A stretch of DNA of 64,000 nucleotides from Amphiscolops sp. MND2022 (lineage: Eukaryota): contig OZ076412.1 of the NCBI GenBank assembly GCA_964187785.1, positions 38,874,001 through 38,938,000 on the forward strand, read 5' to 3'. This document shows, piece after piece, positions 7,991 to 64,000 of this stretch. Every line of letters begins with the position of its first letter. Within the stretch, counting starts at the first letter, position 1. The notes under the pieces are model-generated. The model was not told where the DNA came from and did no database searches. It saw nothing but the letters and a program-made list of their open reading frames with translations. The position numbers were made by a program, and so were the translations under genes.

Positions 7991-8526
7991 CGGCATAGCG
8001 ACAACTCATATCAAGCGACAACTCATATCAGGCGACAACTCATATCAATTCAAAAATGCGACAACTCATATCAAGCGACAACTCATATCAATTCAAAAAT
8101 GCGACAACTCATATCAAGCGATAACATATCAATCAGGAAAAAGTGACAACTCATATCAGGTTTGTCTATAGGTTACAAATACATGAATTGTAATAATACC
8201 TAATTGTAATACTTTATAATTAACTACAATTAGAAATTCCAAGGAATATTTGGACTTATTTTTCATCATTTTATGCGCTATACTCAAGATGATTTTCTCT
8301 GCAACCCTTTTGTATGAAGGTGTGATAAGAGAGTGATTATCCATGACACTGATATTTAGCATAAAATCTTGTTACTATTCAATTGTTTTTGATAATCATT
8401 CATCAATAAGTAATTTTCTCTAATATTCTAATTAATTATGCACATTAAATTTTCCTATGCAGATTTTGATTTTCTGATATGAGTTATCGCCTGATATGAG
8501 TTGTCGCTTGATATGAGTTGTCGCCG
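7991..8526. mobile_element. MITE with long inverted ends built from 17-bp units GCGACAACTCATATCA(A/G)
   Basis: Direct array at 7998-8160 and inverted array at 8475-8526. Both ends begin CGGC. The interior is AT-rich. Confidence 0.7.
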
Positions 8527-32480: not shown

Positions 32481-33879
32481 AAAGTAACTGCTAGTTCTCA
32501 AAGTTGGCATGTTTGATTTGGTAGACGTTTTGAATCTAAAACAGCTTGACTTAGATATACACGCGTTCGTCCGAATGAAGAGTTTTTCCAACTTGTAGAT
32601 AAAGTTTCACTTTCTTCATTATTGTGCCAAACAGGGAGATCTTTGGTATGTCTAGTGGATTGATTTGAATTCTTCAAGCGCACACCCACACTATCACGTT
32701 GTGCTCTTACTCTGATTTCTCAACCATTCATCTGATGTAATAAGCGCTTCTCAAACAACACGCTGAAGATTACTCTAGATTGCCGTTTATAACATGACTG
32801 GAAAAATTGCATTAAGATAGCAATAAGTTTGACGAGGTCTAATCTGTATGTCAGAATAGAAAGAAGACATTACGAAATCTGAAAAACTTCACAATTTAAG
32901 ATTGCCGCAAACATTTCGTTAAAACTTCAAAGCAGATAGTAAGCGGAGATAAAATTCGATTGCAAAATGAAAAATATAGTGCCTGAATGCTTGGGGAATA
33001 GTTTTTGAAAATCATGATGAAAGTTGTTGGCAACTTTGCCGATGCTCCTGGTAATTAATGTTAGTTTTCATTCAGATAACATTCGCAGCCTAATAACACT
33101 CGCGTTGGTTTAAACCATGCATTACTCGCTAATTTTGCTGCTATTACCCCCTCATATATTCAAGATGTGTATTACTTGGTGACCATTCTTAGCGAGGACG
33201 CCTATACAATAGTTCATGAAATGATTAAATTGTACAAGGAGAATAATGCAGTACTAACGTATATGTAATTAAACGTTTGAAATGAATGCGGAAATCAGAC
33301 TACCACATACTGCATTACAGTAATGATATTGCAACTGTGGAGTAATGTATATTACTTAGTCACATTTGTGATTCATTAACCAGTATGACTCTTATTTTGT
33401 GGTGTAGTAAACCCAGGTTAACCATCATGGCTAATTCATGGATATTCATCCATGATTCATCCATGATTTATGGATCGCCATGTCATGAATCATTCCATGA
33501 TCTGGAAAGATATTCATGATTCATGGATGATTCATGGATGGAAACCCATGATTCATGGATGGAAACCCATGATTCATGGATTAAATCCCCGACGCCGAGG
33601 ATGATCATCGATGCAAATTAATGCGAAGGCCCAGTTTTTGAACTGGCCGTTGAACTGGATACACCAGATTCGATGAATTATGAAAAGAATAGTACCATAA
33701 AATCTAGTTTTTGGATTGATAAATTACGGAAACACCCTCAAAAATGATGAAAACGCCTAAAAAGAGCACAAATTAAGCGGATATCATGGGATTTGACATC
33801 TATCGAAACAAACAAGTCAAATAAACCTCAGTTTTATGAGAACCGACACTCACAGAAAATTTTGCCTAGGCTAAATTAG

Positions 33880-34952
33880 CGGGGAACAGGAATAACGTCT
33901 AAGGAATAACGTCTAAAAGTCCACCGGGAATAACGTCTAAAGGAATAACATCTAAATCTGAAATGAACGGGAATAACGTCTAAAAAAACGGGAATAACGT
34001 CTAAAAAGTGGAATAACGTCTAAAAAGCGGAATAACGTCTAAAAAAAGGAATAACGTCTAAAACTGACATACGTTTAAAATGTCAAAAAACGATGAAAAT
34101 ACGTCTGAAAAACGGGAATAACGTCTAAAATTGGCAAAAACGTCTAAAATGTCAAAAAATCTTCAAAATACGTGGCAGTGGGAAGAACGTCTGAGGAATA
34201 ACATCTAAATACAAAATGGGAATAACGTCTAAAATAAATCATATGAGACAAGCGTCTAAAGTTTTAGACGTTATTCGCTTCGAAAAAATCTTTCTGAAAA
34301 CGAAAATATCAAAATGTGGGGCATATGCGGTGTATGCACGCTCGCCCTCACCGTCGCAAAGACCAGCTCCCACTACGATCGCTTCGCGATCTCCGTTCCC
34401 GCTAGGTCTTTGCTCCTGTTCGACCTCGCTTAGCAAGATGGGAACATAAGCGGCCCCAAGGGGCCGCGGGGCACTAGAAGGAATGGGGACATATCCGAGG
34501 CACGTTTTATATTTTATATCACTTTTTAGTTTTAGATCTTGAACGATTTATTTTTTTTCAATTTAATTTGTTTTTCTCGTTTCTCAGTCGTATTTCGATG
34601 AATTTCGGATATCTTGGGCGTTTTTCTGGATTTTTTACGTTATTCCTTTTTTCGGACGTATTTGCATAGTTTTTTGATATTTTGGACGTTTTTTTTCGAT
34701 TTAGGAACAAATACCCATCAGACACATTGACTTTTGCTCGTATTCCGTGGCCTTCGATTATTTCATAGTTCATTCCTGAAAACTAGAGCAAGGGAAGGAA
34801 TTTTTCAGCACGAGGAACAATATTTCAAAATTGAGAATAACATCTAAAAACGGGAATAACGTCTAAATCTTTGGACGTTATTCCCGAAAAATGAGTAAAA
34901 TTTAGACGTTATTCCTTTAGACGTTATTCCTTAGACGTTATTCCCGCCCCTA
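33880..34952. mobile_element. Nested MITE with inverted GGAATAACGTCTAA arrays (probably hAT)
   Basis: Direct arrays on the left and inverted arrays on the right. Candidate 8-bp TSD TAAATTAG at 33872-33879 and 34953-34960. Right end reads TAGGGGCGGG on the minus strand. Confidence 0.6.
34309..34477 (+). mobile_element. Possible mini-Helitron
   Basis: A|TC start, perfect GC hairpin GCGGCCCC-AA-GGGGCCGC at 34450-34467, then CTAG at 34474-34477. The following base is A rather than the canonical T. Confidence 0.4.
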
Positions 34953-35786
34953 TAAATTAGCTAAATTAGCTAATTCGAACATTTGAACGAATTTTTCAAC
35001 ATAGCAAATCATGGATGAATCATGGATGACAGTCATGGATGAAAATCCATGAAGCGTCACTCTGCCATGGATCATCGATGTTTTCCCATGAATAAGTAGG
35101 TAATGTTTTGAAAAATCCATGATCATAGATGAATATTCATGAATTAGCCATGATGGTCAACCTGGGAAGATTTGACTTTGCGAAATAACAAGTTGTTTTT
35201 TTGAAATACGACTTACACTGCATAACATAAGGAACTAGTTTTCGGCAAAAGCTAGTATACAAGTACAAATCATGTGACGTAAATAACAGTACAGCTATGT
35301 TCTTTACCAATCAGAAAACATATGTCTCATTCAAGATTCGGTCCAGATTTATTATGTCATGTACAGTTTTTTCAAAACTAACTGATGATATAACCAGGCG
35401 TTTTTCTAGTAGTTACATAATAATGATGTAATGATGATCCTCTAAAAATTGATGCAATGTGAGAGCAAGAAAACACAACCTCCTCCAATCATCAACGAAA
35501 AAAACACACAAAAACTACAATTTTGCCTTTTCAACACTGCGCATTTTCCTTCAATACTTTTAAACATTCAATTTCATTTTGTCGACTTTACATTATGTTT
35601 GACTTCTTGAACGTTGACTTCAACTCCATATCAGTTCCCGTATCTCTATCTTATTTCAAAAACTTTTGCATCAAAATATCATTTCAGTCCTGGGAAACAA
35701 AAGAAATAGAAAATCATGAACGGGGCTTTCACCTCCATTAGAATGAGAGATGAGAGCTTTAGAAGCAGAAGCGTCAAACAATAATG

Positions 35787-36175
35787 GGACTAGTATTGAA
35801 ACACTTAGTAACTTTGAAAATGTTCGTTCATATAGTGACAGAGGAGCAAGCTCAAACGAACGTGGACTAGTATTGAAACACTTAGTAACTTTGAAAATGT
35901 TCGTTCATATAGTGACAGAGGAGCAAGCTCAAACGAACGTGGACTAGTATTGAAACACTTAGTAACTTTGAAAATGTTCGTTCATATAGTGACAGAGGAG
36001 CAAGCTCAAACGAACGTGGACTAGTATTGAAACACTTAGTAACTTTGAAAATGTTCGTTCATATAGTGACAGAGGAGCAAGCTCAAACGAACGTGGACTA
36101 GTATTGAAACACTTAGTAACTTTGAAAATGTTCGTTCATATAGTGACAGAGGAGCAAGCTCAAACGAACGTGGAC
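35787..36175. repeat. Perfect 77-bp tandem repeat, 5 copies
   Basis: Units start at 35787, 35864, 35941, 36018 and 36095 and are identical by eye. A 4-bp GGAC microhomology closes the array at 36172-36175. Confidence 0.95.
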
Positions 36176-39100
36176 AAAGTGAGAGTGATGTACAAGCATT
36201 GATGCAAAGGCTGACCGATGATAGAACAAACAATGTCAGAAATGAGACAAGAAACGAATGAATAGCTATATTTAATGATACAAGAAATGAAGAGTAACAA
36301 AAGAACACAATCAGTTTCAACCAGGAAGACTTATGAACAAACTACATAAAAAGAAACGACCAATCTTGTGAAAATTGGGAACGTTGAGGTATACGCCTCT
36401 AATATGGATAATCAGAAAACTGAATACAGAATGTTCCTTTGCTGCCTTCTGAATTAAGTGAACTATGTGGATAATGGAGAATTTCATTCATATGACATAG
36501 TGATTTGACACAGTGTATTTGATTCAGTGATAATAATTGAGGAACGTACAGGTGAGGATTATCACAATGACATGTTTCTTAACAGTTTTCTGAATCTTTC
36601 TAAATGGCTCAATCGCCGACATTCTCATCTCTTTGTGCAGATTTGAAGTTTTTGCGATTTGTGATTGTTTTGTGCTAGATCATATAGTTTTCCTCCAAAA
36701 AAACAATAACTGTCCCAGTGCCACTGCGGCGCTTCATTCGAATTTCAGCTTCAGACAAACAACGAAAAAGTATTTTTGAAATATGTATCTGAAATTAAAT
36801 AATATTTCAGGCAAAAATTGCGCAAGATTTTTCTCGATCGATAAATATACGTTGAGTCGAAAATTTATTTATTCATGAGCTTTGATCAATGAATTTGTTT
36901 TGATCCAACAAATTATTGACTCATCGTCTTTTATCTCGTCGACTTCAATCATTCCAACTGAGAGGCTTCGTGAAATCAAAAAAAGTCCAAAATTGAATCA
37001 ATTTGAGAATGAAGAGTATTCCAGATGTCTGTGGCGCTACTAATATTGGTAAAGTCTGTATCCTTGAAAGCATTGCAATAATTGTATGCGCAGTCTTGGT
37101 GAGTTCAAAAAATTTCTGAATTAACAGTGTAAACAATCGAAACATCAATAAAGTCAAGATGAACTGAAAAAATTGTCAACAATTTGTTCTGAAAGGGAAG
37201 ATGCTGATTGTGCAAAAAATGGAGTCTCGAGTGATCACAATGTAAAACCGAAAACTATTTGGAAGTGAACAGTATTCAGGTGCCAAAATCTGCGGCGTTC
37301 ACTTGGTAATCACTTCGGAATACCTTTAGTTCTGATTTTCAACTTTTCAAGTAGTTTTTTGGTGTTCAAACGTCATTTCTAATTGAAGATAAGATCAAAA
37401 AATGAGCCAGGAGGAACCATTTTCATCTTTCCAACTTTGAAGTCATTGACGTCTTTGAAAACCTACATAAATATATTTGGTCATGCTGGTTAGCTGCGAG
37501 TTTGTTGACAAAATCAATTCTGAGAAGTCTCGAAGGTGCCGCAGGGCAAATAATCAAACAAGTCTAGCTAGAAACATACATACCATAATTCAAGCGAAAT
37601 ACTGCAATCAAAAATGCATGAAAAGGGGCCCATACTTCATATATTGATCTCATCAAGTATTTTTTCCACTCAACAAAACGAAATAACTTCGCACCGGAAT
37701 TTCTTGTCGCTTGTTTTTGTTGGTAATACAGTTTTTCGAAACAACATCCAAAGATGCAGATACACGTTTCTAAAGTATTCACATTTTCATGAAAGTATTC
37801 CCAGTTCTTGTTTCAACTTGGCTGAAAATGATCATGACTTTGCCACTGCTTCTTTTCAGCATGAATTCCCGATATCGCCATTCGAGGATAGTTTTTCATG
37901 AGGTTTGTGAATTTCAGTGGTTATTCCAGAGTTTAGACGCATTTTCTTGAATTTTAGTCATTAATCCAGTCTTTAGAATTTATTTCACTTTTCGGCGAGC
38001 CTGAATAACGGTTCCACTCGGTCTTTCTCGTTTTACCGTTTCTCCACACCAAGAATTTTCCACATTTTCCCCTTAAAATCTGATTTTGCGATTCAGCAAC
38101 TTCATAGTTGCTAATTACTACTATATTCCTATTTATTTTGAGACTTTTCACAGTAACTTTTCCTAGCAAAGAAATTCAACTGTTCAATTCAGACCACTGA
38201 TTACACTTTCTTAGAAAAGAACCGTGCGAGTTGTTGCTTCGCATTTCATAAATTCCAAACAATGTAGAAGTAACAATTACATAACCTTTTCAAGCATATA
38301 TTCAACAACATTCAGAGAGTTAACGTCTCAGTATTTGGGTTGGGAGTTGAGTCCGTTATGGTTACAATTTGTGTTCAACAAAGCTCACACGAGAATATTT
38401 TTTGTAGAGAAAGACGGATTAGCACGGATTTAAGAAATTCGGTGAAGAAAACGAAGCTATTTTCTCATTACATTGGGTATTTTGGTCACATGAGTTTCGT
38501 CAGTGTCATAGCCATGAGATCAACGAAAAATCAAAACCAAAAGAAAGGCGGTAAAAGATTTGCATTACAGTGCATCTGCAAGCTTTTTCTGAGCGTTTTG
38601 CGGAAATCAGGACACGAAATCGCGGAAACCGAGACGCGTGCACTGAATGCATTCCCCTTTGATGTCGACTGCCTTAGCCAGTGGATGGAAGATCCGCCAG
38701 TGGATGTTTTCTGGACTTTTCTAGTTCGAAGATTTGCCATTGGAACCATGTAGGAAGACTTTTTTGAATACGATTTGCTCAACTTTATCATGTTCCAATA
38801 GTCAACTTAATCATGTTCCTTAACAAAGTAGAGAAATGATTAGTACTTACACTGGTTGAAAATTTTTCTGATAATATTTCTTATGGGGCTTTGATTTTAA
38901 GTTTTCCATTGCTGTAAAAAACTTTATTTTTAGTTGGCGCTTGTGACAAAAGTGTCGGACTCTTACAATGGTGGCTAGTTTTTTCCTTTTTTGTCTGACC
39001 ACGAAGCTCACTCTGTATATACCACTTTTTGGTGTTGAGGTTAATCGGCTTAGTGGGAACCCAGCAGTCCCTGTTTCAGCCTGCAATTTTTTTGTGCTTT

Positions 39101-48655: not shown

Positions 48656-48702
48656 AAATATATTTAAAAAACAAAGGTGGTTCACTAAATTAGAGTGAAA
48701 AG

Positions 48703-49966
48703 TGTCGCAGGCTGCCGCCTGTGATGGTACAAGGATCACTACTACCGCAGAAGGACAGGAAATAGCGGCCGGAACTCTACCAATATATTAGAGGTAAACA
48801 TTAAAAACACAAACTTCGCTATTATTTTTTTAGTCTACAAGTTGTACCTGTTATCGTTGCGAATTTTACACTTAGTATATAGTTTGTTGATATTAGTCCG
48901 TTAATGCCAACATTTGAAAATTCAGATGCTGTATTGATAATTGTAAGAGCTAGAAGTGCAGTATGAACACGCTGTTATAGCAATAGATAGGCAGCTAGAA
49001 AGCGTAAAGGAAACGAGTTCAAGTGAACGTAACTCCAATTCCGGAGACGTCACTTGAGCTCAACCTGTTAGCCAATCATATTCATCCATTTGAGTAATAG
49101 TAGTGCTGTATTTAATTAATGGCCGGTTTAGGCCATATGCCGGAATTTCACCTTTATCTATTGGCGCTTTAGTCAAACGGCCGGTTCCGACCTTAATGTT
49201 CAGATGAAAGAATATTAATGCAAGCACTGTTGTGTTTCGTTTAATAGTAGTCTAATCACGTTGCTGTACTAATTAAACGTTCATTTTAGCTAATTGGCGC
49301 TTTATTTTATCCATTCCAATATTAGGCCGAATAAGGCCATTTGCCTGACTTCTATCCTCTGTTGCTGTGACCAATTGGACAGTGGCCGGTTGAGGCCCCT
49401 TTTCAATACTATTATTCAGATGCTAATTACAATCATTTAGTGTACTTTAAATGTCATGTATAATTACAAGTACGTCGTAAAGACTCATGTAACTTTTGAA
49501 TTTAATTGGTGTAATCAATACCAATGTATGATGTTGCTACCAATATTAGTCCAAAGGACATGTCTGACCATATGTACTAGTTGACACGTGGAATCTGTGT
49601 GCATATTATATAAAGGAAAATATGTGCTGTTACATGTAACATTGCTGTATACAGGTTGATCTAGCCTGCTAACGGGGCACGTGCCGACACGAGATTGTCA
49701 GCATTTCTGAAATATTAGCGGCGTAAACATTTTAATCGATGCTATTTGATGTACCGTGTGCCTTTTGAATACTTGTTATAGTTGTCAAAACAGGAATTTG
49801 ATCGGCCGCGTGACCTTACGATCACGATTCGGCGGCACTTTGATGCTTGCATAGTCGAGTTAAGTCAGGTGCTTTCGGAATGTGTTTGTATCATTCTTTG
49901 GCTGTTTGCATCATGTTTATCCCGCCCAAGGAAGTATATATAGGGGCAACTTCCTTTGGGTGGACA
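48703..49966 (+). repeat. 5' LTR (identity proven only to 49432; right end tentative)
   Basis: Starts TGTCGCAGG and matches 63271-64000 over 730 nt with 3 substitutions. TATATAAA at 49607-49614. The candidate GACA end at 49963-49966 would give TGTC/GACA termini. Confidence 0.7.
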
Positions 49967-50074
49967 CAATTTTGTTTTGCTCCTAATATTCAGTTGATAA
50001 CACTTTCTCGTTAACAATCACCAATTCTGTTTTCCGGTTTTAATAATTTAACTATTCAACCCGGTTTAGTCTTA

Positions 50075-51769
50075 ATGCCTACTACTAGAAAACAAAAGAA
50101 GGCAAGGAAATCTAGAGGATTAGAGATTCTCTCTGACATTGAAAACCTTGACATAATGTTAGGTGAAAATCACTTCAATGACATGAGGAGAGACGAAAGT
50201 CTCGATGGAACTTCCATTAGAAGGCAGGAAAGTGTTACAAGCAACAACTTAGAGAATGAGGAAATGAATCTCCATTCTGATCATAGAAATCCCGAAACTG
50301 GGACTAGTGCCGGTTACGACCGAATCACAGCGAGTATAGATTCTCAAGCTGAGATCAATAAGTTATCGTGTGAACTAAACTCTAGAGTATCTAGGGAGAT
50401 GGATGAGATGATGAACAACGTTAGTTCTCAAATCCAGAGAGCCATAAGTGATGCCATCAATAACCAAGTTTTGCCACAAATTCAAAACGTTATTATGGCC
50501 GGTTCAGGACAAGAGACTAGAAGGGGATGGGAGAGATCCGACGAGAGACCGGAAAGTTATTCCGAAGTTCAGTATAACGCGAAAACTAAAACCACCCTCA
50601 ATAATGAACACGGTGATAGAATACATCGTAATGTTCATGACATGGTGACAGGAGACAACGAATCTCCAAATCAAGTTCCTGAGTTTCTCACAGTACGAAT
50701 CTCATCCAGAAATCATCTCGACAGGTCCTTCGAGGACATCAACCTCGACACGACGATCCCAGCACAAGAGAGAATCGCTACGGCTGCTGACTCCGACCCC
50801 ATCACCCGACTGGCAGACGTCTTGACTACAATGCAAAATAGACCGACAGCCCAACAACTCACCATACGCCCAGTCAACTCAAATACCATGACATTCGATG
50901 GCAAAAGTGAGAAATTCGAGCTGTTCGAAGACCTATTTCACACTATGATCAAGATGCAGCCAGAAATGACTGAGCAAATGAAGATCAATCACTTCCACTC
51001 TTTATTGAGGAAAAATGCTCTCCAGACGTTCAGAAATATCAGCTCAAGCAACCGACAAACTCTAGAGGACGTATTAGTCATCTTTAGACGGAAATACGTC
51101 AAGCCCGAGTCACAGGCGACTGCCAAACATAAATGGCACCGTCTAGTCTTCGATCCCAATACGATGAAGCTGCCTGATTTTCTCGAAGAATTGAACCAGG
51201 GAGCCGAGAAGGCGTTTGGCGATCATGCACAGAAAATGATTGACAGCTTGCTCTACGCAAAGCTGCCACCTAAGTTGAAGCGATCTGTCAACATGGCCAG
51301 ATTAGAAAATGGCTCATATGATGAAATTGTTGCTCATTTGGAGAGAGAGTTGGAACTCAATGCCCTTGAGGAATCAGATGACCTACCAATGGCCACAATG
51401 ACCTCCTCATCTAAAAAACCTAAAACTCCTCTGTCCACAGGGCAACTGTCCGATATCACTTGCAATTACTGCAAGGAAAAGGGCCACATGGTCAAGGACT
51501 GCGAAAAACTGAAAAAGAAAAAAGAAAAAGATGCCCAACAAGGCAAGTCGACACAGAAGAAAACATATCCGGAGTGTGGCACTTGTGGGAAAAAGAACCA
51601 CCCGGAGGAGAGATGTTGGCAAGGTGCTGGTGCACATCTTAAACCCAAACGCACTAGACATGATGACTCAACTGAAAATAAGCCCAATCCAAAGGCTCAG
51701 AAACCTCAGACCAAACCGACATCATCGAGCTCCCAATCCTCATATCCTAATGATGAGTCAAAAAACTAA
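50075..51769 (+). CDS. gag: Gag (564 aa)
   Basis: Capsid-like FDGKSEKFELFEDLF region and two CCHC knuckles, CNYCKEKGHMVKDC and CGTCGKKNHPEERC. Confidence 0.9.
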   Translation: MPTTRKQKKARKSRGLEILSDIENLDIMLGENHFNDMRRDESLDGTSIRRQESVTSNNLENEEMNLHSDHRNPETGTSAGYDRITASIDSQAEINKLSCELNSRVSREMDEMMNNVSSQIQRAISDAINNQVLPQIQNVIMAGSGQETRRGWERSDERPESYSEVQYNAKTKTTLNNEHGDRIHRNVHDMVTGDNESPNQVPEFLTVRISSRNHLDRSFEDINLDTTIPAQERIATAADSDPITRLADVLTTMQNRPTAQQLTIRPVNSNTMTFDGKSEKFELFEDLFHTMIKMQPEMTEQMKINHFHSLLRKNALQTFRNISSSNRQTLEDVLVIFRRKYVKPESQATAKHKWHRLVFDPNTMKLPDFLEELNQGAEKAFGDHAQKMIDSLLYAKLPPKLKRSVNMARLENGSYDEIVAHLERELELNALEESDDLPMATMTSSSKKPKTPLSTGQLSDITCNYCKEKGHMVKDCEKLKKKKEKDAQQGKSTQKKTYPECGTCGKKNHPEERCWQGAGAHLKPKRTRHDDSTENKPNPKAQKPQTKPTSSSSQSSYPNDESKN

Positions 51770-53703
51770 CTTCGCCACGACTCCAATATAACGAATTAAT
51801 ATCTGTCCGACAATACATCAGATCGGACCCTCCAAAGCAAACCTTCCACCAATACAATCAGCAATTGATGGGCTATCCCTCTGTTGTCTGGCAGCAGCAG
51901 ATGGAAAAAGCTACCATCATCACCTACAATAACACCCATTTATTCCAGAAACCAATTCCTGTTTGGGACACTGATTACACCACTACCTTCACCACCCGCT
52001 TCAGGCCCATTCCCCTAATCGATAATTACAATCCAACATACATCGACCCAGACTACGGCAGAAGAGATCCCTATTGGGACACCGAGCTTTACAACCAAGA
52101 TTCACTGCAATTTCAATATGTCCTGGACGATATTGACTATTATAACAGAACAGTCCACGAGAACCCCCCAATTACCCATAACAAGAAAACACGAGCACTA
52201 ATCGAAAACTGGCAAATGAATGATGGTACAAACCACCCAGTGTTCCCAAACCCATTGGGGACCGAGAACCCTGAAAACAGTGGTGAATCCACGCCACAAT
52301 CATTATTAGATGAAAAACAATTCCAAAATGTACTCATCACCAGAGATGGTGAACCAGACTGTATACCCCTGTCAACCAACATCAACCTCAAATGCAAGAA
52401 ACGCATGCTTTATTTCCCAATGGACTTTGGGGAATTGACCATTGATGGATTAACAGACACTGGAGCACTGTCCAGTGCAATCCCTGAAATGGACCTCCGG
52501 AAAATCCGCCTTCTATCTCCACAATCTGTTATCCGAGAAGGTCCGCCTCCGAACTTCCAAATCATGGTCGCTAATGGGCAACTGGAAACTCCTAAGAGTA
52601 CCATCGAGCTCAAATTCGAAGTTGGTGACATTGAGTTCCATGAAATCTTTATAGTAATGGAACATTTGACAGGACCAATCATTGGACTAATGTTCCTTCA
52701 GAGAAATCATACAGTGCTGGACATGAGACAAGGGATACTGAATTTCCCCTTCTTTTCAATGCAGCTCAAAACGGCTGACCATAAGTACTCAAATGTATTA
52801 GAACCAATTCTCAACCCTATTGAGATAACAATTCCACCAAATGATAAAGTCCTGATTAGAACCAATTCCCTACTCTACCCTGAGAATGCTGTCACTGGAA
52901 TTTTGCAACCGAGCGACCTTCTACATGAGGAAGGCGACATCACATTTTGCCCAGCTTTGGTCACTCTGAATGACGGCAATATATTGATACCAGTGAACAA
53001 TTTCACAGACCACCCTTATAAACTCAAAAAGGGACTACATATTGCCAATTTCTCTGTCATGACGCCAGAACAGATGAAGTATGTCAAACCGGTAGACCCG
53101 GCATCAACCTGGCACCTTTTGCAGAATGACCAGGAGCAAGCAGCCCATTATGTCAGCAGTCTCATCAAAACCAATAGAAATCCACAAAACTCCAAAAATT
53201 ATTGGTTCCCAACTCCAGAAAACCCTGGAAATCCTGAGGAACACACACCTATACAAAAACGAATCCTACGCGAGTTACAGGCCTTACAGGACCTGGAGAC
53301 ACTCGACCCCACCACAGATGCAGAATCATGTGCAAAATTCTTAGAACACTTCGACTGGAAAGATTCCACCCTTACTCCTGAAGAAAAGGAGAAAATTGAG
53401 GAATTGTTAGTGGAATTCCATGACATCTTTGCACGACACCGATTTGATATAGGCATGAACGAGGAATTCAAAGTGAAACTGACACCTAAGGACGATTCCC
53501 CAGCCTATAGTCAAAGCCTTCCAGCTCCTATCAATTTGAAGGAGGACATCTTAGTCGAATTAGCCATGTTACACAAATATGGCATCATCACCACCCTACC
53601 GTTCTCAAAATATGCGAGTCCAATATTTGCACAGAAGAAACCAAACGGGAAACTCCGACTCTTGGTTGACTTGAAAAAAAATCAACAACCTCATCTCAAA
53701 TGA
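51757..53703 (+). CDS. pol: Pol part 1: spacer, aspartic protease, dUTPase-like beta region, RT start
   Basis: DTG at 52456, then YASPIFAQKKPNGKLRLLVDL. The frame is broken by an A8 run at 53674-53681. Confidence 0.9.
   Translation, partial: VKKLTSPRLQYNELISVRQYIRSDPPKQTFHQYNQQLMGYPSVVWQQQMEKATIITYNNTHLFQKPIPVWDTDYTTTFTTRFRPIPLIDNYNPTYIDPDYGRRDPYWDTELYNQDSLQFQYVLDDIDYYNRTVHENPPITHNKKTRALIENWQMNDGTNHPVFPNPLGTENPENSGESTPQSLLDEKQFQNVLITRDGEPDCIPLSTNINLKCKKRMLYFPMDFGELTIDGLTDTGALSSAIPEMDLRKIRLLSPQSVIREGPPPNFQIMVANGQLETPKSTIELKFEVGDIEFHEIFIVMEHLTGPIIGLMFLQRNHTVLDMRQGILNFPFFSMQLKTADHKYSNVLEPILNPIEITIPPNDKVLIRTNSLLYPENAVTGILQPSDLLHEEGDITFCPALVTLNDGNILIPVNNFTDHPYKLKKGLHIANFSVMTPEQMKYVKPVDPASTWHLLQNDQEQAAHYVSSLIKTNRNPQNSKNYWFPTPENPGNPEEHTPIQKRILRELQALQDLETLDPTTDAESCAKFLEHFDWKDSTLTPEEKEKIEELLVEFHDIFARHRFDIGMNEEFKVKLTPKDDSPAYSQSLPAPINLKEDILVELAMLHKYGIITTLPFSKYASPIFAQKKPNGKLRLLVDLKKNQQPHLK
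51760..51766 (+). promoter_or_regulatory. -1 ribosomal frameshift slippery site A-AAA-AAC
   Basis: The heptamer is in gag phase immediately before the gag TAA. The pol frame is -1 relative to gag and opens only at 51757. Confidence 0.8.
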
Positions 53704-56700
53704 TTATATCAACAACAATCATCCCGTCAGTACACTAGTTGATGCCGCACAACACTTGGCAGGCAAAAAACTGTTCTGTAAATTAGACTGTTCGCAGGCA
53801 TACCACTGCCTACCAATGGCCGACCAACGCTCAATCGAAATGTTGGCTTTCAATTTTGCCAGTCGCACATTCGCTTACCGACGCTTGGCACAAGGCCTTA
53901 GTCGGTCACTATCCGCATTCTCGAGTTTCATGAGGGAATACCTCGACAAAGTCATTAAAGCGGATCAGTGTGCCCAGTATGTGGATGATATCGGCATCGC
54001 AGCCAATGATGTCGACCACCTCATGACGAACCTGAGAGCCACGTTCAAATGCATTCAGGAAGCAGGCCTTAAGTTGACAATGCACAAATGTCACTTCGGT
54101 GCAAAAGAAATTGATTTTCTCGGACGGAATATTACCCCACAAGGCGTCAAACCTCAGAAACAGAACGTGCAAAACTTTCTGGAAAAGACCAAATTCCCGA
54201 AGTCGAAAAAGGCTTTACAGCGCTATTTGGGATTCCTAAACTATTACAGGAATTATGTCCCAAGACTCTCTGAACGCCTTGCTCCATTCTACAAGATGCT
54301 CAAAAGTGACGAAAAGGTCCTAGTATCGAAAGAACTAGTCCAACAATTCGAAGAAATCAATAGAGCACTAGACAAATGTTGCGACCTGGCCCTACAACAG
54401 CCCATTCCGAACAAACAAATAGCACTAATGACTGATGCAAGTTTTGGTGCAGCCGGGTACGCGGTCCTAATTGAGGACGACCCAAGTCAGAAATTTACAC
54501 CACTCAGAAAATCGTATGCACCGGTCGCATATGGATCAAAAACTTTCACCCCAGCACAGATCAAGATGTCAATTTATGCCAAGGAATTCCTTGCAATTTA
54601 TTTTGCATTCAAAGAATTCGGACGTATCTTCTGGGGTGCGCCGAAACCGGTCATCATCCTTACGGACAACAAAGCTGTCACGAGATTTTTCCAAACGAAA
54701 ATAATACCCCCAGCCCTGTGGAACGCGTGTGATTATGTCATTCAGTTCAATTTTGTCATAGCACACATCCCAGGGGCACAAAATACAGCCGCCGACTATT
54801 TGTCCCGATTGGAAGCAGATCCAAAGGACAAATTGGTGATGAAAATTCGTGAAGATGTACAAACACTACCAATCGAAATCAACGTCCAATCCGCAGGTGT
54901 GACGCAAGAAGAACAAATCTTCTACACCAATGACGACGACGAGACAGAGGAACAGTATTGGGCAAGAAAAGAAGCAATTAGGAAAAATCCAACAACTGAT
55001 GAGCCCACTGTTACTATACAAACTCTGTCAACAAATCTGGTCAAGCAACACCCCGATATACAAGTCCGATTGAGGAGAACGAACCAGATCATTATCGAGC
55101 AATCCAAGGATGCGGTACTACAACAATTGAAAGCAAAACTGCTTCATGAAGAGTATTCAGAAAATCTACTACACCAGGATGCCCGATATAGATATTACGC
55201 AAACAATCTGGAACGAATTGTACTAAAGGACGAAATCCTGACAAGGCAATATTTCGATGAAACAGGGAATGTTAAATACCATCAAATTCTACTCCCGCAA
55301 CATTTACTCCAGGAATTGCTCCAATCCCTTCACGGGACAGCGCATAAACATCCTGGGATTTCAAAAATGCTGCAGGAAATTCGACAGAGGTATTACTACC
55401 CTAACATGGCTAAACATGTCAAAAAGTGGGTAGAAGGGTGCGAACACTGTGCCAGAGACAAAAGAGTCCCTAACGCAACGATCACACCTGAGCTGCTCAA
55501 CTTGCCCGAATGGGACCTCGGACCTGAAGACGCCATGCAAATAGACCTATTGCCGAATCTTCCCCCAAGTGGTGGGTATGAAAACGTCTTAACAGCAATT
55601 GATGTATTCTCCAGATATTTGTTCGCCTATCCCCTTACGGACACATCAGCGATCAATGTAGCAAAAGCGCTCATTGACATCATGACTAAACACTCATATC
55701 TACCAACGCCTCTTATCACTGATAAAGGTACTGCATTTACTTCTACAATTATTGCGGAGGTTACGCAAATTTTGGGCATCACACTCAAATGTGCAACGAC
55801 AAAACACCCGCAGACAATTGGGAAATTGGAGCGAACTCATGCCTCATTGAAAACAAATCTCAAAATGGCATGTGGGGAATATCGCCGACAGTGGCACAAA
55901 TACTTGCCATTAGCAGTACTGAATCATAATACTAGTTATCACGCCAGCATCGGTTGTGAACCGACGAAAGTATTCCATGGAAGAATTCCAGTTAATATCT
56001 TGGATCACAAACTTGGAAATAATCCAAATGAGCAGATCAACCCCACAACCGAATTTGCTGATGAAATCCAAAACCGGACAAAAATCCTAATTGACAAAAC
56101 GAAGCAGAACATTATGCAGTCGTATATCAAGTACAAAGAATATTACGACCGCAAAGCAAAAGCTGCTCCATTGAAGGAGAATGATTACTGTTTCGTCTTA
56201 CAGCCGAAAGCGAATCATCAGGGATCAAAAATTCCATTCCGCGATTACCGTTGGGTTGGACCATTTGTAGTCCAAAAAGTTTTGCCAAATGAAAACTATA
56301 TAGTACGACGGATCAATACGAACAAAACTCAAATTTTGCATCGCATTCGCCTTAAGAAGTTCGTCCCCAATCAACCGCTTGAGGATAATTTCCGAGAACA
56401 ACGTCTGCAGCCAGACGAAGAAATTGTCATTCCGCAAGATGACCTATACGTCATAGCGTGGGAAACAGATTTTGGGCAGCTAGTTACACGAGACAACGAG
56501 CCCATTCCGACTAGCGTGCCGAATGGCGAACAACCGAATGCGGCACAACCGAATACAAGTGACGCACACGAGAATGAAGTGGATTATGTAATCACGAGTG
56601 ATGAATCAAATCTTGCCGATCGTGCGTCGCATAGCCGGAATGAACGATTAATTGATGACGTCACTACAAGAAATGAAGCTAGTGAACAGTCTAGAAATGA

Positions 56701-56974
56701 AGAACCTGATTGGCCGAATCCGGCCATTTCCCCAAAAAGCCATGAAAAATCCTTGCCGGATACGGCAGACAGCCTTAGAGATAAAGAAATTTCCCCCGAT
56801 GAAAATTTTAGAACTGAAATCGATGCACAAAATTCTCCAAAAAGGGGGAATGATATTATCGTGCCCGAAATATCTGAAAACGATGCTAGAAATGAAAGTC
56901 TGAGACCTAGAGGAGGGAAATATAACCTCAGGCCTAACCCTAACCCAAACTACTCAGAAGACTTCAGATACTAA
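53682..56974 (+). CDS. pol: Pol part 2: RT, RNase H, integrase
   Basis: KLDCSQAY, YVDD (53978-53989), TDAS / KEFLA / TDNK / AADYLSR, integrase HHCC (H-GTAH-KH-PG...CEHC), D-D-E core (QIDLL, ITDKG, KLER) and the GPF motif. Confidence 0.95.
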
Positions 56975-57203
56975 GTATTGAATTTTCCCGGAAATGGGAA
57001 TTCTTTTCTTTTATCTTTGTTTTAAGCCCCTCTGAGAATTTCTTTTGAATAAATACTGGGGCATTTCAAAGGATCCCATACAAAAAGGGAATAAATAAGG
57101 GATCAAGACATCAAGAAATCAAAAGAAACAAATGGAAATGAATAAAACATAACAGAAATAAACAAAGTTTACAGAAATAGTGTACATAAATACATTTGTA
57201 CAC

Positions 57204-58517
57204 TTAAAGGTTAGAAGAACCAGGAGTGAGTTCCCGAGTAACAGAAGAGGCCCTCGACCTCGATGAGCTTCTCTCCATACGCCTTCGTTTAGTGTCACTG
57301 GGAGGCTGAACAGCAGGCGCGTCCCCCATGATGGATACATTTGGATTGTCCAGTCCTCTTACCCGCTCAGCAGAATCAGAAGAGACAGTGCGATAGGTTG
57401 AAACCAGAGACTTGAAGATCTTACCCCGCCCAAAGACATCAACGTGGGTCCATGGATCGTACTCAGGTGAGAAAGCTGATCGCCCGAAGGAAGCAGCCAG
57501 TAGCGAAAAATCACTGAGTTTCTGGTCAGTAACGCAATAAGCAAGGGACTCTGGTACTCCGGACAAATAACTCTGTACAGGCAAAACAACGTCAGTGGAC
57601 CGACTTTGGAAGCCTGTTGTGTTAAGAGTCCCCATAGTGACAATGGGGCAACCAGGACTGCAGGAGGTGGCACAGAGACAACATAGTTTGAACAGATGCA
57701 CTAAATGAACGCGGTTCTGCATATACTCGAGAGACATGAGGAAATCGATTAAGTCCCGGAAATGTTGAGTGATATCGAAATCAGGAGCATAATTGCCATG
57801 CAGGTGGTCGAGTAGTCCAACATACTCGTCACGACAAGCAGACTCATTGGAAGATGTCACCCATGAGCGGAGAAGGAAGGTACTGTAGAGAACGTCGAAA
57901 TGACGGAGCGCCACTACTGTAGGCCTTCTGAGCATAATGAAAGGGTCAAAAGCAGCGAGCCCTTTAACGATGTTTGAGCTTAGCCCAGCTTGTCGGAGGA
58001 CTTCGCCAATCAGGTACTGCAGGTATGCTTGCCCATCTCGGACGAACTCAGCCTTCATTGTTGAAGCGGTCTTTTGGACGAGTGACTTGTCCACTTTCTT
58101 CCCCGAATGGATGCCCTCTGCTTTCAATTTACAGGCTCGGGCCACCTTGTTCGTCATTTGGAGTCGGGTCAGGAACTCCTCCACAGGCATAAACGCTCCC
58201 TCTGTAATCTGGAACCCTAGCAGGAGAAACCACGAATTCTCGAGGGGGATTGTGTCAGAGTTGTAACAGCGGAAACACAATTTATAGATATAACGGGATA
58301 CCTCACCACAGAGGTAAAAGGAAGAATCGCGCCGCCGCTGCAAGTTGATGACGAAACTGGAAGTGTCTGAAACAAGGAAATGGTCTGTTCCGGCCCCAAA
58401 GAAAAGCCTTAAAAAATTCACCGTAGAACACGTACAATCGCTGATTAGGTGGTAAAAGAACCCCTGTTTGACAAGGAAGAACTCATCACAAATGAGGGAC
58501 CACTCGAAACGTTGAAC
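57204..58517 (-). CDS. Antisense cargo gene, exon 4 (possibly split by a 93-nt in-frame intron at 58209-58301): hAT transposase C-terminal half
   Basis: Acceptor TTTTTTGTTCCAG, phase 0. Contains EFVRDGQAYLQYLIGEVLRQAGLSSNIVKGLAAFDP and HLVHLFKLCCLCATSCSP, matching hAT F...C..FY...I.KR.P....+...L..+DP and the C-terminal dimerisation helix. Confidence 0.75.
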   Translation of the reverse strand, partial: VQRFEWSLICDEFFLVKQGFFYHLISDCTCSTVNFLRLFFGAGTDHFLVSDTSSFVINLQRRRDSSFYLCGEVSRYIYKLCFRCYNSDTIPLENSWFLLLGFQITEGAFMPVEEFLTRLQMTNKVARACKLKAEGIHSGKKVDKSLVQKTASTMKAEFVRDGQAYLQYLIGEVLRQAGLSSNIVKGLAAFDPFIMLRRPTVVALRHFDVLYSTFLLRSWVTSSNESACRDEYVGLLDHLHGNYAPDFDITQHFRDLIDFLMSLEYMQNRVHLVHLFKLCCLCATSCSPGCPIVTMGTLNTTGFQSRSTDVVLPVQSYLSGVPESLAYCVTDQKLSDFSLLAASFGRSAFSPEYDPWTHVDVFGRGKIFKSLVSTYRTVSSDSAERVRGLDNPNVSIMGDAPAVQPPSDTKRRRMERSSSRSRASSVTRELTPGSSNL

Positions 58518-58627
58518 CTGGAACAAAAAACGGAGGAAGTGACACCTATTACCAACCCTATCACGCTCGACAAGCTGGTTATGGTGATTACAATTTTGCT
58601 GAAGAAGGAACTTGGCACATAACTCAC

Positions 58628-58762
58628 CCTTGTCCTAACCCCCTGTCCTTGCTGCTGGGGAACGCGAGAAGTCAAGTAAGTCGTGATCGACTTCCACTCA
58701 TCTATGAGTTCCTGGCAAAGTGTGGGGAGAGATTGGAGATCTAATCTGCAACTGGAAATGGC
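58628..58762 (-). CDS. Antisense cargo gene, exon 3 (45 codons)
   Basis: Acceptor ACTTTCTCTTTTAG, donor GTGAGT, both phase 0. CRLDLQSLPTLCQELIDEWKSITTYL resembles hAT TRWLSL...V.R+LE.W..L..YF. Confidence 0.75.
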
Positions 58763-58858
58763 CTAAAAGAGAAAGTATGGTGGTAAATATTACGCAGATG
58801 TACAATCCTCGGATTCCCTCCCTATTTAGATTTCACCAAATATTTGAAAGTCACTAAC

Positions 58859-59344
58859 TCGAACTAGTTCAGGACTCCTTTGTACCCAATCTTCGCGGAG
58901 AGAACTGCCTAGGGAAATCACGAGGCCTTTGAGCACGGAGAAGAAATCAATATGGCCAGAAACACTGTAGCTGAGTTTATGCATCAGGTGAGGCAGGTCC
59001 AGCTGACTGAAGCGAAAACAGCTTTGCACGGCCCTGGTAGTGGTCGGCATTTCATCTATGGTCCGGAGCAGTTCAGCGGGACAGCCCGAACAGGCAACTA
59101 TATCTGCCTTGGTAGAGACCACTGAGAACAGTCGGGCTAGGGACCCCAGTTCGCCCACTAAGTCTGAAGACGGTAGTCCACTTCTGCACACTGTCACTCT
59201 GCAGAGTTCCCAACCCTTCCAGAATCGTAGGGACATGAACCTGCTGGTCCCACTGTCTTCGAACTCCAGGCCAAAGCATTGTTCCGAGGCTACGTGCTCA
59301 GCAAGGTTCTGTAAGGCGCAATTGAAGAAATGTTGGAAAATCGC
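58859..59344 (-). CDS. Antisense cargo gene, exon 2 (162 codons)
   Basis: Acceptor TTTCCCATTTCAG, donor GTTAGT, phase 0. CFGLEFEDSGTSRFMSLRFW resembles hAT FSL..DESTD...QL.+.VRY, and DLPHLMH resembles C.CH.LH. Confidence 0.75.
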
Positions 59345-59573
59345 CTGAAATGGGAAACACTATGTGAAATCGGATTCGAATTGCCAATCGGAGGACACTT
59401 AAGACTGGACGGGAATACAACGAGATTAGTGCACGTACAAGGGGACTTATATACAGATGTAGATACTACAACACTCTTGTCAAACCATAGAAAATGAAAC
59501 ACGGTTCGTGGGAGGAAGAAAACCCCTGGGTTTACGCCCTAAAGTTTGTATTACTGCTATCTCTAATACTTAC

Positions 59574-61514
59574 AGTCACTCTCTCTTCCCCCCAGTCAAA
59601 GTCGCAGAGTGCAGCTTGATAATCGGTGAATGAGCTGATCATTGCCCACATTCTCCTGAGGACTGACAGGTCGCCGTGTTTGGGGATGTACTCTCCAATC
59701 AGACACAGCTGTGTTCGGGCTCGCGACTCGGGAGTAACTAAAGGGGCAGTTCGGCCTCGGATGAAATCGTCATAAAACGGGAAACGCTCCCCGATGTCGA
59801 CCAGTTCTTTGTGGATGAACTTCGGCAGTTCCCGCGCCAACTCAATTTTACTGAGGATTTTCCCATTACGGCCTCTGACCCGGTGCTGAATCGTCCCGCT
59901 CACAGGGTCGACACTCCTGAGGTGCTCATACCTCCACCTCTGATCCCGTCGCAGATGCTTTTCAGTCCGGTGGTGTCGGAGGATCTCAAGAGGACCTTTG
60001 GACTTAATTGAAAAGTTCTTCTTACACATATGGCACCAGACCATATGTGGGTTATGAATAGGGTCAGCGGGACCGGAAATGAAGGATCTGGTCCACCCTA
60101 TTTTGGTGAAGAACTCCTCGCGCATGGGCACACCCCTTTGGGACTGTCGTTTGGGTTTTGGGGATTTCTTGGCTCGAGTGTTTCGCCTTGACTTGCCACT
60201 CAGGGTCTGCTCCCTGACTTCAGATAAGGTAGCATCCTGACTACTAGGGTCTGTGTCTTGGCCCCTTAGGTCGTCACTTACAGCCATAGTAGCGGTTTCA
60301 GCCCAAGTGTGGCTTGAGACAGGTTTATACGATGCTGAGATCAATGCCATTTCTCCTGCGCTGTCACTCTCACCAGAAAACGACGAATCACCTGTCTCGG
60401 CATGACGTTGGGTGTCTTGGTCGTCCGATTCTCCAGACGTGAACGTCCCGGCTTCGGCATCGCTAGAATCACTTTCAGCTTGTCTGAAGGGAGTCGCGGC
60501 TCGGGCTCTCGAACGGAAGGTATCAGTCCGTGATGGCAACGCAGTTGGTCTACCTCTAACGGCATCTAGGTTCATCTGTTCCATGTTGGTATGGGACATC
60601 CTGAGAGTCTCATCGGTTAATACCCGCAGCAAATGATAAATCTGCGGCTCAGTGAAGGCTACTGTCGGGTGTCCTCGGGGAAGGTTGAAGGCCTTCTCCT
60701 CCAAGAAATAAGTCTTGAGGATAGCTCGTGACCTCCCAGACAATTCAGGCAACTGGTCATCTAGTCCCCTGGAAGTGGAAGCAATAGGGTCCTGGTGATG
60801 TGTGGTAACCGGTCCAGACTCGTCACCCGCCTCAGTTCCCGATTCGCCAATGCCGGGAATGTGTCCATACAATGCCGTTTTTCCCAGGCTGCTGGTTTCT
60901 TCCGAGGTTTTCTCCCCTTCACTCAGATCGGCTAAAAAACGGACTTTGGGTTCATTACCTTGTAAGGCAGGCACTTCATACACGGAAGAGGTATTATCAT
61001 CTTCGGATTGGGGAGCAGTCCTAGATTGGTCACCCTGGGCTTCCTCTGCCGCTGTCAACAATTCAGGATACTGTGAAGCAGAAGAAGTTGCGATTACTAG
61101 CGCAGATTCCAAAGCTGTCAGGCTCAAGTGGGATTCGTCTGTTCCTCCAACGGGGATTGGGGTGCTTGCTCCTCTAGGTATCAGGACCGCCTGATCCGTC
61201 TGCCCTTCAAGGACGTCTGGGGTCGTTAACTCTCCTTCTTCTCCGACCGTGGCTTGGTTATCTTGGCCTGCTCCTTGTTTGGATACCAGGTGCTGTACCA
61301 TGGCGTCAGCATAAGAATTAACGTCAACCTCACTAGTGGCGCTTTGTGGAGAATAAAAGGCACTGGCCGAGGCAAGGACTTCAGGAATAACATCTCTGGT
61401 CATGGGAGGTCGCGTCTGAGAAGGATCTGCAGGCAATGTCTGATCTTCAGGTGGATAATTCTCTAAACAAAAAGAGATGAAATTTGGCGGTGAGCTTCCT
61501 TGAAAGAAATCCAT
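59574..61514 (-). CDS. Antisense cargo gene, exon 1 (647 codons): acidic disordered region, basic NLS-like patch, BED-type zinc finger
   Basis: AAAATGG start context. WCHMCKKNFSIKSKGPLEILRHHRTEKH is a C2H2/BED-type finger. Perfect GTAAGT donor at 59573-59568. Confidence 0.85.
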
Positions 61515-62573
61515 TTTACCGCATTAGAAATCTCCCGGAAGTACTTGTGAAATTGAATGAAACATGTTGTCACGTGTTTGACTTTGGAAACAGGAAGCAA
61601 TCAGTGAACAGGATTTAACTCTGATCAAGTTGAAACCTTAGTTCAAAATAAATCTGAAACCAACCTGGATTAGAAGACATCCTGCTGTAGGAAATTGCCT
61701 TTTGGAGTCAGTCCCAATCTGGGCGGAATAGCCAAGACACAAGATCGAGATTGGCGGAGGAAATGGGTAGTCTCGGACGAAGCCTGGAAGAGGGGTCTAC
61801 CAGCGCAGTTGAAGGCTCGGAAGTGCGTACGAAGACTCAATAAATAAGGAATTGGATACGGAGGAATCAGGAAATAAATGGAATTGGAGTAATATGGAAT
61901 TGAAATAAAATTGAAAGATTGGAGTTCGTGGCTGAAGATTACTACCAGACTAATATTATGGATTATCTACATATTTATTATGTACATGAAGTCTGCCAGC
62001 GAAGTGTACAAAAACTTTGTTCTTTACAGCTTATTTAGTTAGAGGCCAGTTATGGCCGTTTGCCCTGTCTTGTTTTGCCGTTTCGTTCAGTTGTCTTAGT
62101 TACCTTTTAGTTAGAATTTTCGCCATCTTGGATTACTTGGATTTATTATTTTCGCCATTTTTATTATTTAATTTTGCAATTTATCGAAGCTTAAAGCTGA
62201 TTGGCTGAAGCCATTTTGAAAGAATTCCGCGTCGCGTGCCGTTAATCGCTCTCAGGCAAACTGTTTATTACCCACTTGAAACGGGTGAAGATAATATTTA
62301 CAACTCAAGCGTCATTAACACCACCTCTCAGAGTGATGGTGCTGATAGGGGGTAAACACTGAGTTATCGAAGGATGCCTACTAATTATAAAATTCCATTC
62401 AGGAATGTTTACGTCGGTTCAGGGCGATTTACCGATAACTCGACCGCCAAAAACGAATTGCCGGGAAAAGGCCCGAGTCGACTAAAATTTTGAGTTGGTA
62501 AATTCATTCCACTTTGAAATCTCACTCAAGCTAGTTAATTTTCCCAATCAGCAAAATTGCTAAGAAACTCATA
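61515..62573. promoter_or_regulatory. Candidate internal bidirectional promoter between divergent cargo genes
   Basis: 1.06-kb non-coding gap between head-to-head ATGs, with Ets CCGGAAGT at 61535-61542 and CCAAT boxes in both orientations (GATTGG near 62199, CCAATC near 62545). Confidence 0.45.
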
Positions 62574-63359
62574 ATGCAGAGGTATAACCTAACTAAAAAG
62601 CTCTTTGATCTTGAAGAAGACTCAGAAAGTTCAGTGGATTCAGTTATCTACATCTCAAGTGACAGTGAGAATGAAATCTCAAGCTCCTGGGACTCAGACT
62701 GGTCCACGGATACAGAAGAGATCATAGAAAGAATAGAACGAGAGGTGAAAGCAGCTCCAATCCCTATAGCGAGACGCGGGATGACGACGGAAGATTTAGA
62801 TGACGAGATGACAGCGGGACCAAGCAGTGCATGGCCTGTTCCTCCCTCTACCCCTAAACTGGGATTCGAGTATTTTAACAAGGAAATGTGCTTGGCCCCA
62901 TCGAAAAAACAAAGAAAATCAAAAGTCGAGCTCTGTGCAACTGTATTACCCGTTCTGGAGTCCCCACAGTCTCCTCCCGACCATGAAAGAGGACCGAGCA
63001 TTGACACCCCTCTTGCGCAGTCAACCTCTGGATCTTTCTATGCGTCCTATCATGTGCAAAATATCGAGCCTTACCAGGATGAGAGCCAAAATTTGCACAC
63101 AGGCTGTATGGTATGTGGCAAGTCGAGAGATCAAATAAAAGCAGAAAAGGTGAACTGGTACATGCAAAGATCGACACCTAGCAGTGAGCCCGCTTATATT
63201 ACCGCTCTACGACGAGAGGCTTATGAAAATGGCTTGAACGCAGGAAGCTTACTTTTCCTAACACCCGCAGTGTCGCAGGCTGCCGCCTGTGATGGTACAA
63301 GGATCACTACTACCGCAGAAGGACAGGAAATAGCGGCCGGAACTCTACCAATATATTAG
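62574..63359 (+). CDS. Accessory ORF (261 aa) of unknown function, overlapping the 3' LTR
   Basis: ATAATG start, acidic Ser-rich N-terminus with VIYISSDSE, basic KKQRK and CMVC. The last 28 codons and the stop lie inside the LTR. Confidence 0.75.
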   Translation: MQRYNLTKKLFDLEEDSESSVDSVIYISSDSENEISSSWDSDWSTDTEEIIERIEREVKAAPIPIARRGMTTEDLDDEMTAGPSSAWPVPPSTPKLGFEYFNKEMCLAPSKKQRKSKVELCATVLPVLESPQSPPDHERGPSIDTPLAQSTSGSFYASYHVQNIEPYQDESQNLHTGCMVCGKSRDQIKAEKVNWYMQRSTPSSEPAYITALRREAYENGLNAGSLLFLTPAVSQAAACDGTRITTTAEGQEIAAGTLPIY

Positions 63360-64000
63360 AGGTAAACATTAAAAACACAAACTTCGCTATTAGTTTTTTA
63401 GTCTACAAGTTGTACCTGTTATCGTTGCGAATTTTACACTTAGTATATAGTTTGTTGATATTAGTCCGTTAATGCCAACATTTGAAAATTCAGATGCTGT
63501 ATTGATAATTGTAAGAGCTAGAAGTGCAGTATGAACACGCTGTTATAGCAATAGATAGGCAGCTAGAAAGCGTAAAGGAAACGAGTTCAAGTGAACGTAA
63601 CTCCAATTCCGGAGACGTCACTTGAGCTCAACCTGTTAGCCAATCATATTCATCCATTTGAGTAATAGTAGTGCTGTATTTAATTAATGGCCGGTTTAGG
63701 CCATATGCCGGAATTTCACCTTTATCTATTGGCGCTTTAGTCAAACGGCCGGTTCCGGCCTTAATGTTCAGATGAAAGAATATTAATGCAAGCACTGTTG
63801 TGTTTCGTTTAATAGTAGTCTAATCACGTTGCTGTACTAATTAAACGTTCATTTTAGCTAATTGGCGCTTTATTTTATCCATTCCAATATTAGGCCGAAT
63901 AAGGCCATTTGCCTGACTTCTATCCTCTGTTGCTGTGACCAATTGGACAGTGGCCAGTTGAGGCCCCTTTTCAATACTATTATTCAGATGCTAATTACAA
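63271..64000 (+). repeat. 3' LTR (truncated by window edge)
   Basis: Near-identical to 48703-49432, differing at 63393, 63758 and 63956. Confidence 0.95.

Follow-up and report, generated by a model that had tools for sequence, protein, structure and literature searches.

Plant Ty3/Gypsy retrotransposons are described, in passages of two papers (PMC7264820, PMC11963269), as carrying antisense accessory open reading frames (ORFs) such as TRP28/Transposase_28 of Retand, gene23 of Grande and that of RIRE2. According to the same passages, where the antisense accessory genes of retrotransposons with long terminal repeats (LTRs) come from and what they do is debated, the Grande ORF has its own promoter and a nuclear product, and TRP28 is found in 97% of Retand clusters and is a predicted DNA binder (PMC7264820, PMC11963269). 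A review takes the missing similarity of these plant ORFs to other transposable elements as a point against an origin from nested elements (PMC7264820). Here we describe an antisense gene, hereafter the cargo gene, located in the stretch that separates pol from the 3' LTR in a complete Ty3/Gypsy element of the animal Amphiscolops sp. MND2022. The window, meaning the whole stretch of 64,000 nucleotides that was analysed, is C4:38874001-38938000 of a genome searched over 1.07 Gb in 1,929 contigs, and the carrier element spans 48703-65210 in window numbering (16,508 bp), its right end lying beyond the window. The initial annotation had reported a class II-like gene antisense inside a class I element, and this placement was confirmed. 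Similar to the plant antisense ORFs, the cargo gene has the same position and orientation and is family-wide and conserved; whereas those have no identified donor, the cargo belongs to an animal, encodes 1,268 aa, contains four introns and is apparently a near-complete hAT frame. As judged from sequence comparison, our data show that the gene was fixed and selected across a whole Ty3 clade and then passed into a giant transposon with terminal inverted repeats (TIRs).

The gene model was built from an alignment of the window copy with 29 other copies, 12 of them displayed. A protein of 1,291 aa from four exons had been proposed, and the segments 61514-59574, 59344-58859, 58762-58628 and 58517-57204 do join across GT..AG introns into 1,291 codons, but an intron at 58435-58367 had been overlooked. 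Introns 1-3 and this stretch show more divergence and indels than the exons, and at 58435-58367 the GT and the CAG are kept in 12/12 of the other displayed copies, with 1-nt indels inside. The intron (intron 4; 69 nt, phase 1, minus strand, as are all cargo features) is by chance in frame and stop-free in the window copy. In the distant copy L073, intron 4 is 493 nt long, again phase 1 and at the same position, and the other three intron positions are likewise unchanged, so that all four are kept. With intron 4 taken as real, the predicted spliced product is a protein of 1,268 aa from five exons. Exon 1 (59574-61514; 647 aa) encodes a long low-complexity N-terminus, a basic patch, a BED-type zinc finger (59955-60095; C494-x2-C497 ... 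H514-x5-H520, with Trp/Phe upstream) and a helical segment ending ..EERVT. Exon 2 (58859-59344; 162 aa) would form the N-terminal half of an RNase-H-like core, exon 3 (58628-58762; 45 aa) has an R-L..SL..EW segment where RW is expected, exon 4 (58436-58517) comprises 27 codons plus one base, and exon 5 (57204-58366) encodes a helical insertion-domain-like region, LAAFDP, the LFKL segment and a basic KRRR tail. The alternative 1260-aa form with an optional intron found no support, since the candidate 93-nt introns (58309-58217 and 58301-58209, GT..AG) span protein conserved in 22/22 aligned copies and the GT at 58301 is missing in 2/13 displayed rows.

A genome search with the last segment of the gene gave 8,704 first-look candidates, which do not equal copy numbers, and the 96 that were scored had 61-100% identity. 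Ty3 pol adjoins the cargo in 65/69 loci, lying tail-to-tail with it in 30/30 loci with 1.5-kb flanks (the window's own copy included), in 18/19 loci of 10 kb and in 17/20 further loci chosen for diversity. The rest are L032, a degraded copy with no pol in the 4.6 kb read (L032:1-4600) and with unrelated ORFs on the 3' side, and three loci of the TIR element. Scored by pol beside the cargo, which is a different quantity from the share of Ty3 copies with a cargo, the gene belongs in the aORF-3R class. The alignment of exon 2 from ten copies is gapless throughout its 162 columns, with identities of 36-90%. The finger region is 45-91% identical in ten copies, and the identity of exon 5 goes down to 36%. 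A hand count over the first 67 codons of exon 2, window against L046, gave 28 silent and 7 residue-changing differences, which is the opposite of the neutral expectation and indicates purifying selection. A profile search of a protein library retrieved 548 proteins at E 0.001 or better; the relatives aligned (50 of 150 listed) were 26-60% identical, and the ten looked up were ENA-derived. Two of these library proteins share just 26-41% identity with the best scored copies of the genome, and the family is thus probably present in other species too. Cargo matches also recur at a spacing of about 14 kb at C12:39856977-39886739, C9:14580513-14623146 and C11:10229396-10271196, suggesting tandem arrays of LTR-sharing elements.

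The three loci just mentioned (L073-L075) hold a distant cargo with the pol tail alone beside it. A flank search found a left end common to many copies, with an inverted copy 37.6 kb away; the left repeat of L073 had been considered as an LTR, a reading that we rejected because the inverted copy shows it to be a TIR. At least 8 copies are 97-99% identical over two searched stretches right of the cargo. Among the five copies fetched at both ends, a set to which L074 and L075 do not belong, both TIRs were present in 5/5, 35.3-37.6 kb apart, a perfect 2-bp target-site duplication (TSD) in 4/5 (the fifth has an extra C), and an open exon-5 frame in 4/5 (the fifth is missing from the frame listing). 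One copy has an open transposase frame of 654 aa, with DUF1258 above the cut-off and Transposase_21 and DUF4218 below it, and in the C1 copy the transposase frame is broken. This TIR family of 35-38 kb (C1:35414739-35452362, which includes L109, L073, L110, L113 and L114, and the copies on C9, C10, C3 and C2) also holds repeats nested within it and further ORFs that lack annotation (L110:2937-3641, L113:7295-7714). CMC-EnSpm/Mirage elements have CCC ends and a 2-bp TSD, and we take the TIR element to be EnSpm/Mirage-like, partly on traits that we presume to be typical of that group.

In L073, the five cargo exons are all open, and exon 5 is 72% identical to that of the Ty3 copy L077. DNA homology between L073 and L077 extends from a frameshifted pol tail across the spacer and on into the cargo, which sets the direction of transfer as Ty3 to TIR element. 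The presence of the same gene in a giant DNA transposon suggests that the cargo helps whichever mobile element carries it. It also bears on the idea that the cargo is a hAT-derived cofactor of Ty3 integration, tethering the pre-integration complex to chromatin or importing it into the nucleus. Such a role would fit the integrase that always adjoins the cargo in Ty3 copies, the basic patches and the zinc finger, and nuclear import is one proposed role of the plant antisense ORFs (PMC7264820). Nevertheless, the gene is open in the TIR element beside a decayed pol tail, with no integrase motif found alongside, and we regard this role as unlikely. A tandem repeat that translates like the pol tail of the Ty3 subfamily L076/L077 (..RVSDLS..) is expanded in the TIR element at L073:1-4300, L074:2800-4300, L113:2300-4000 and L114:4400-5300, and could be a motif to which the cargo protein binds.

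Regarding ancestry, the four ligands of the finger are invariant in 10/10 aligned copies; against the BED finger of Ac-type hATs from the same genome, the finger aligned with an hhalign E of 0.099, and Pfam zf-BED was matched in 2/10 copies (E 0.72). The best local profile matches fell at homologous hAT places, namely the finger, the strand before the first Asp and the RF..LDP helix. In the structure comparison, Hermes 8EDG gave the longest of the 50 alignments displayed, with 164 residues (positions 1-277 of the model against 368-609 of Hermes). A model built from a shallow alignment had a predicted local distance difference test score (pLDDT) of 37.6, too low to be of use. For exon 5, 3/4 of the Atlas rows shown were hAT-type clusters (0.88-0.89), the lead being a PF05699 cluster at 0.89. 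No Pfam match to the C-terminal PF05699 domain was obtained among 55 members, and Foldseek against PDB and BFVD, plus a second-look aligner, gave no match, with Hermes not among the second-look rows listed. Word-indexed protein searches, a weak kind of search, found no longer relatives; a metagenome scan gave 100 pattern matches with 0 confirmed; and genome searches for DUF4371 and zf-C17orf113 were blank, as were their controls. When a closer hAT donor was sought by eye among sixteen weaker PF05699 loci, none stood out. In the same genome there are hAT transposase frames of the Ac type that are intact (597-697 aa), and one of the Tip100/P52rIPK type that carries a frameshift (L063-L067, L070).

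That sequence, profile and fold searches gave nothing significant, and that Pfam's best finger matches are to other zinc-finger families, would be in keeping with a BED-like or C2H2 finger gene of another origin whose motifs resemble those of hATs by chance. We consider such an origin improbable, as hAT-like matches are found for four distinct parts of the protein, correctly ordered and spaced, and exon 5 has a hAT-type cluster as its Atlas lead. The several weak but concordant signals make the initial annotation as a full-length hAT derivative with a BED finger probably right, with the qualification that the catalytic residues are seemingly lost; hAT ancestry together with loss of catalysis is, in our judgement, likely.

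The catalytic positions were placed by eye against hAT sequences. Glu674 stands at the first Asp position, invariant in 10/10 copies, Ser stands at the second, and the LFKL segment at the position of the final Glu is without the conserved ERxFS Glu. At CxxH, one His is invariant and the Cys is absent; RW reads R-L in the window and K-F in L073, with the Trp absent. As mapped, then, the cargo has neither the DDE triad nor the CxxH and RW motifs of hAT transposases, and with its catalytic residues seemingly lost we treat it as a derivative and not a transposase. The hAT motifs quoted earlier are present and in the order given, but DLPH holds no conserved CxxH and was rejected as such: its His varies (R/K/T/A/Q), and it is the His three residues later that is invariant in 10/10. 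An enzyme with a remodelled active site, either a nuclease or a recombinase, might explain the invariance of Glu674 and of that one His, together with the invariant acidic residues D140, D204 and D258 of exon 5 (exon-5 alignment numbering). The chance of this seems slight to us, given the lack of a conserved acidic residue (by eye) at the second Asp and final Glu, the missing Cys and Trp, and the absence of TIRs as a substrate.

The observation that no TIRs surround the gene was borne out, as inverted matches between 56801-57300 and 61401-62700 reach no more than 11 nt. Neither hAT TIRs nor an 8-bp TSD were found at the cargo, and its flanks are Ty3 sequence in 65/69 loci. The conclusion that this implies capture is unsupported, however: subfamilies stand at 36-48% protein identity, a divergence great enough for TIRs to have eroded, which gives their absence little weight. 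An antisense, intron-bearing gene would fit an old nested insertion at the DNA level, and RNA-level capture would tend toward a sense, intronless frame, so a nested-insertion origin is what we infer. Introns in antisense orientation are not spliced out of sense genomic RNA and hence survive reverse transcription.

We propose that, long ago, a Ty3/Gypsy ancestor received a hAT DNA transposon in antisense orientation, in the interval separating pol from the 3' LTR. The ends of this transposon would then have eroded and its catalytic residues been lost while the gene was retained. Antisense placement would let the four introns escape splicing from genomic RNA and pass through reverse transcription, and the cargo would be read from its own promoter. 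Its product may be a DNA-binding protein with a zinc finger, located in the nucleus and probably oligomeric, which would recognise sequences of the carrier and either promote carrier expression or shield the carrier against silencing, in the way that VANC acts for VANDAL. Later, a giant EnSpm-like transposon would have taken in a Ty3 element belonging to one subfamily, retaining the helper while pol was lost. The gene is selected, has a finger and a basic patch, shows no sign of catalysis and persists whether or not integrase accompanies it, and a DNA-binding helper of the carrier, activator or anti-silencer, is thus the simplest reading, to which we give about an even chance; the nuclear location of the product, its binding to DNA and its role as activator or anti-silencer are all inferred. 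More speculative, and on balance doubtful, is the broader idea that a dead hAT transposase was domesticated by other transposons, rather than by the host, as a portable module for self-protection or self-activation that passed from class II to class I and back to class II. Several points weigh against this account. The hAT signals are each non-significant alone, in sequence, profile and fold comparisons, and two profile comparisons with resident hATs aligned at the wrong places. In L074, exon 5 is 69% identical to that of L073 and no exon-1 frame is listed, and the recent TIR copies could be passive carriers of the gene.

Head-to-head with the cargo lies an extra sense ORF (62535-63359, plus strand), a frame of 274 aa extending into the 3' LTR and without a Pfam match, whose homologues adjoin the cargo in the same arrangement in 18/19 of the 10-kb loci. 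The conservation of this ORF would suit an action of the cargo on the host or on rivals, either as one half of a drive or toxin-antidote pair whose other half is the sense ORF, so that the carrier would be difficult to shed, or as a dominant-negative repressor of active hATs, of which the genome has intact transposase frames, and two vehicles fit a benefit to any carrier. We think this improbable too, because the cargo is too far from the resident hATs tested to align and because a benefit acting in trans would, given candidate copies in the thousands, be a public good without separate selection in each subfamily.

In the carrier element, the 5' LTR (48703-50642, plus strand; 1,940 bp, TG..CA) follows the target-site copy AAAAG at 48698-48702, and the 3' LTR, in part inside the window (63271-64000, plus strand), runs on to 65210 and is followed by AAAAG; the two LTRs are 99.4% identical (12 mismatches in 1,942 nt). 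Immediately 3' of the 5' LTR is a sequence resembling a primer-binding site, TGGTGACAGG (50643-50652, plus strand), its presumed role resting on position. The gag frame with a zinc knuckle (50075-51769, plus strand; Pfam DUF1759 E 1.8e-5 and zf-CCHC E 0.003, both under the cut-off) begins inside the LTR, its first 568 nt (50075-50642) being LTR sequence, so the gag N-terminus is present in each LTR. The pol region (51757-56974, plus strand) encodes protease, reverse transcriptase, RNase H and integrase (RVT_1 6e-20, RT_RNaseH 1e-14, rve 9e-11), ends in the C-terminal tail GKYNLRPN and is broken into two frames near 53,690 in the window copy. TG..CA LTRs, a short TSD, the primer-binding-like site and gag followed by these four domains in this order are all features of Ty3/Gypsy elements. 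Between protease and reverse transcriptase (52800-53070), an extra beta-rich stretch presumably recalls a dUTPase-like fold; Pfam gave no match there. Judged by eye in this one copy, the interval 63245-63270 upstream of the 3' LTR shows no purine richness that would mark a polypurine tract. A second copy of the window's 5' LTR and left flank, 100% identical, lies at C4:30482627-30484527 and may be either a segmental duplication or an assembly duplicate. MITE-like inverted repeats and a 77-bp tandem array were seen elsewhere in the window (7998-8524, 33412-35166 and 35710-36252).

For the debate on antisense accessory genes, this is a case in which a probable donor can be named, the DNA-binding module is recognisable, selection is clear and the same gene occurs in a second, unrelated vehicle. 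The two vehicles amount to a natural experiment that makes the benefit of an accessory gene to its element testable, and antisense placement lets a retroelement keep an intron-bearing gene indefinitely. If the proposal is true, the cargo would be an animal transposon-encoded anti-silencing factor that might account in part for how a Ty3 clade, with candidate copies in the thousands in this genome and relatives elsewhere, has expanded, as well as serving an EnSpm-like element of 36 kb. Relative to the plant antisense ORFs, and within a limited search, the animal host, the introns, the probable hAT donor and the transfer to a giant DNA transposon appear to be new. Our literature search, which had partial coverage through titles and abstract openings, found no hAT-derived gene in an LTR element. 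Burro and Ogre, in the portion of the source that we cite, are giant Ty3 elements whose extra ORFs have ubiquitin- and apoptosis-related domains (PMC6431247), and the carrier is like them, so far as that portion describes them, in being a large Ty3 element with extra ORFs; the whole words "hAT" and "antisense" are absent from that text.

VANC of the Arabidopsis VANDAL elements is, in the passages cited, an accessory protein sequence-specific for its own family, with an effect shown experimentally (PMC6719617). We would like to note that VANC serves as a functional model only, with no homology claimed, and that it is found in plant DNA transposons, whereas the cargo is known from sequence. Similar to hATs (Hermes, Tip100/P52rIPK-type and Buster/FAM200-type), the cargo has a putative BED-type finger and the same segment order and spacing, and similar to Hermes in particular it has a helical C-terminal half with a weak colinear alignment to 368-609. 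Unlike hATs, it is without DDE, CxxH and RW as mapped and without TIRs or an 8-bp TSD, has a low-complexity N-terminal extension of about 460 aa, and moves within other elements. The TIR element is similar to CMC-EnSpm/Mirage elements in its CCC-starting TIRs, subterminal repeats, 2-bp TSD and DUF1258/Transposase_21/DUF4218 transposase, but differs from them in its length of 35-38 kb and in carrying a Ty3 remnant together with an intact cargo gene.

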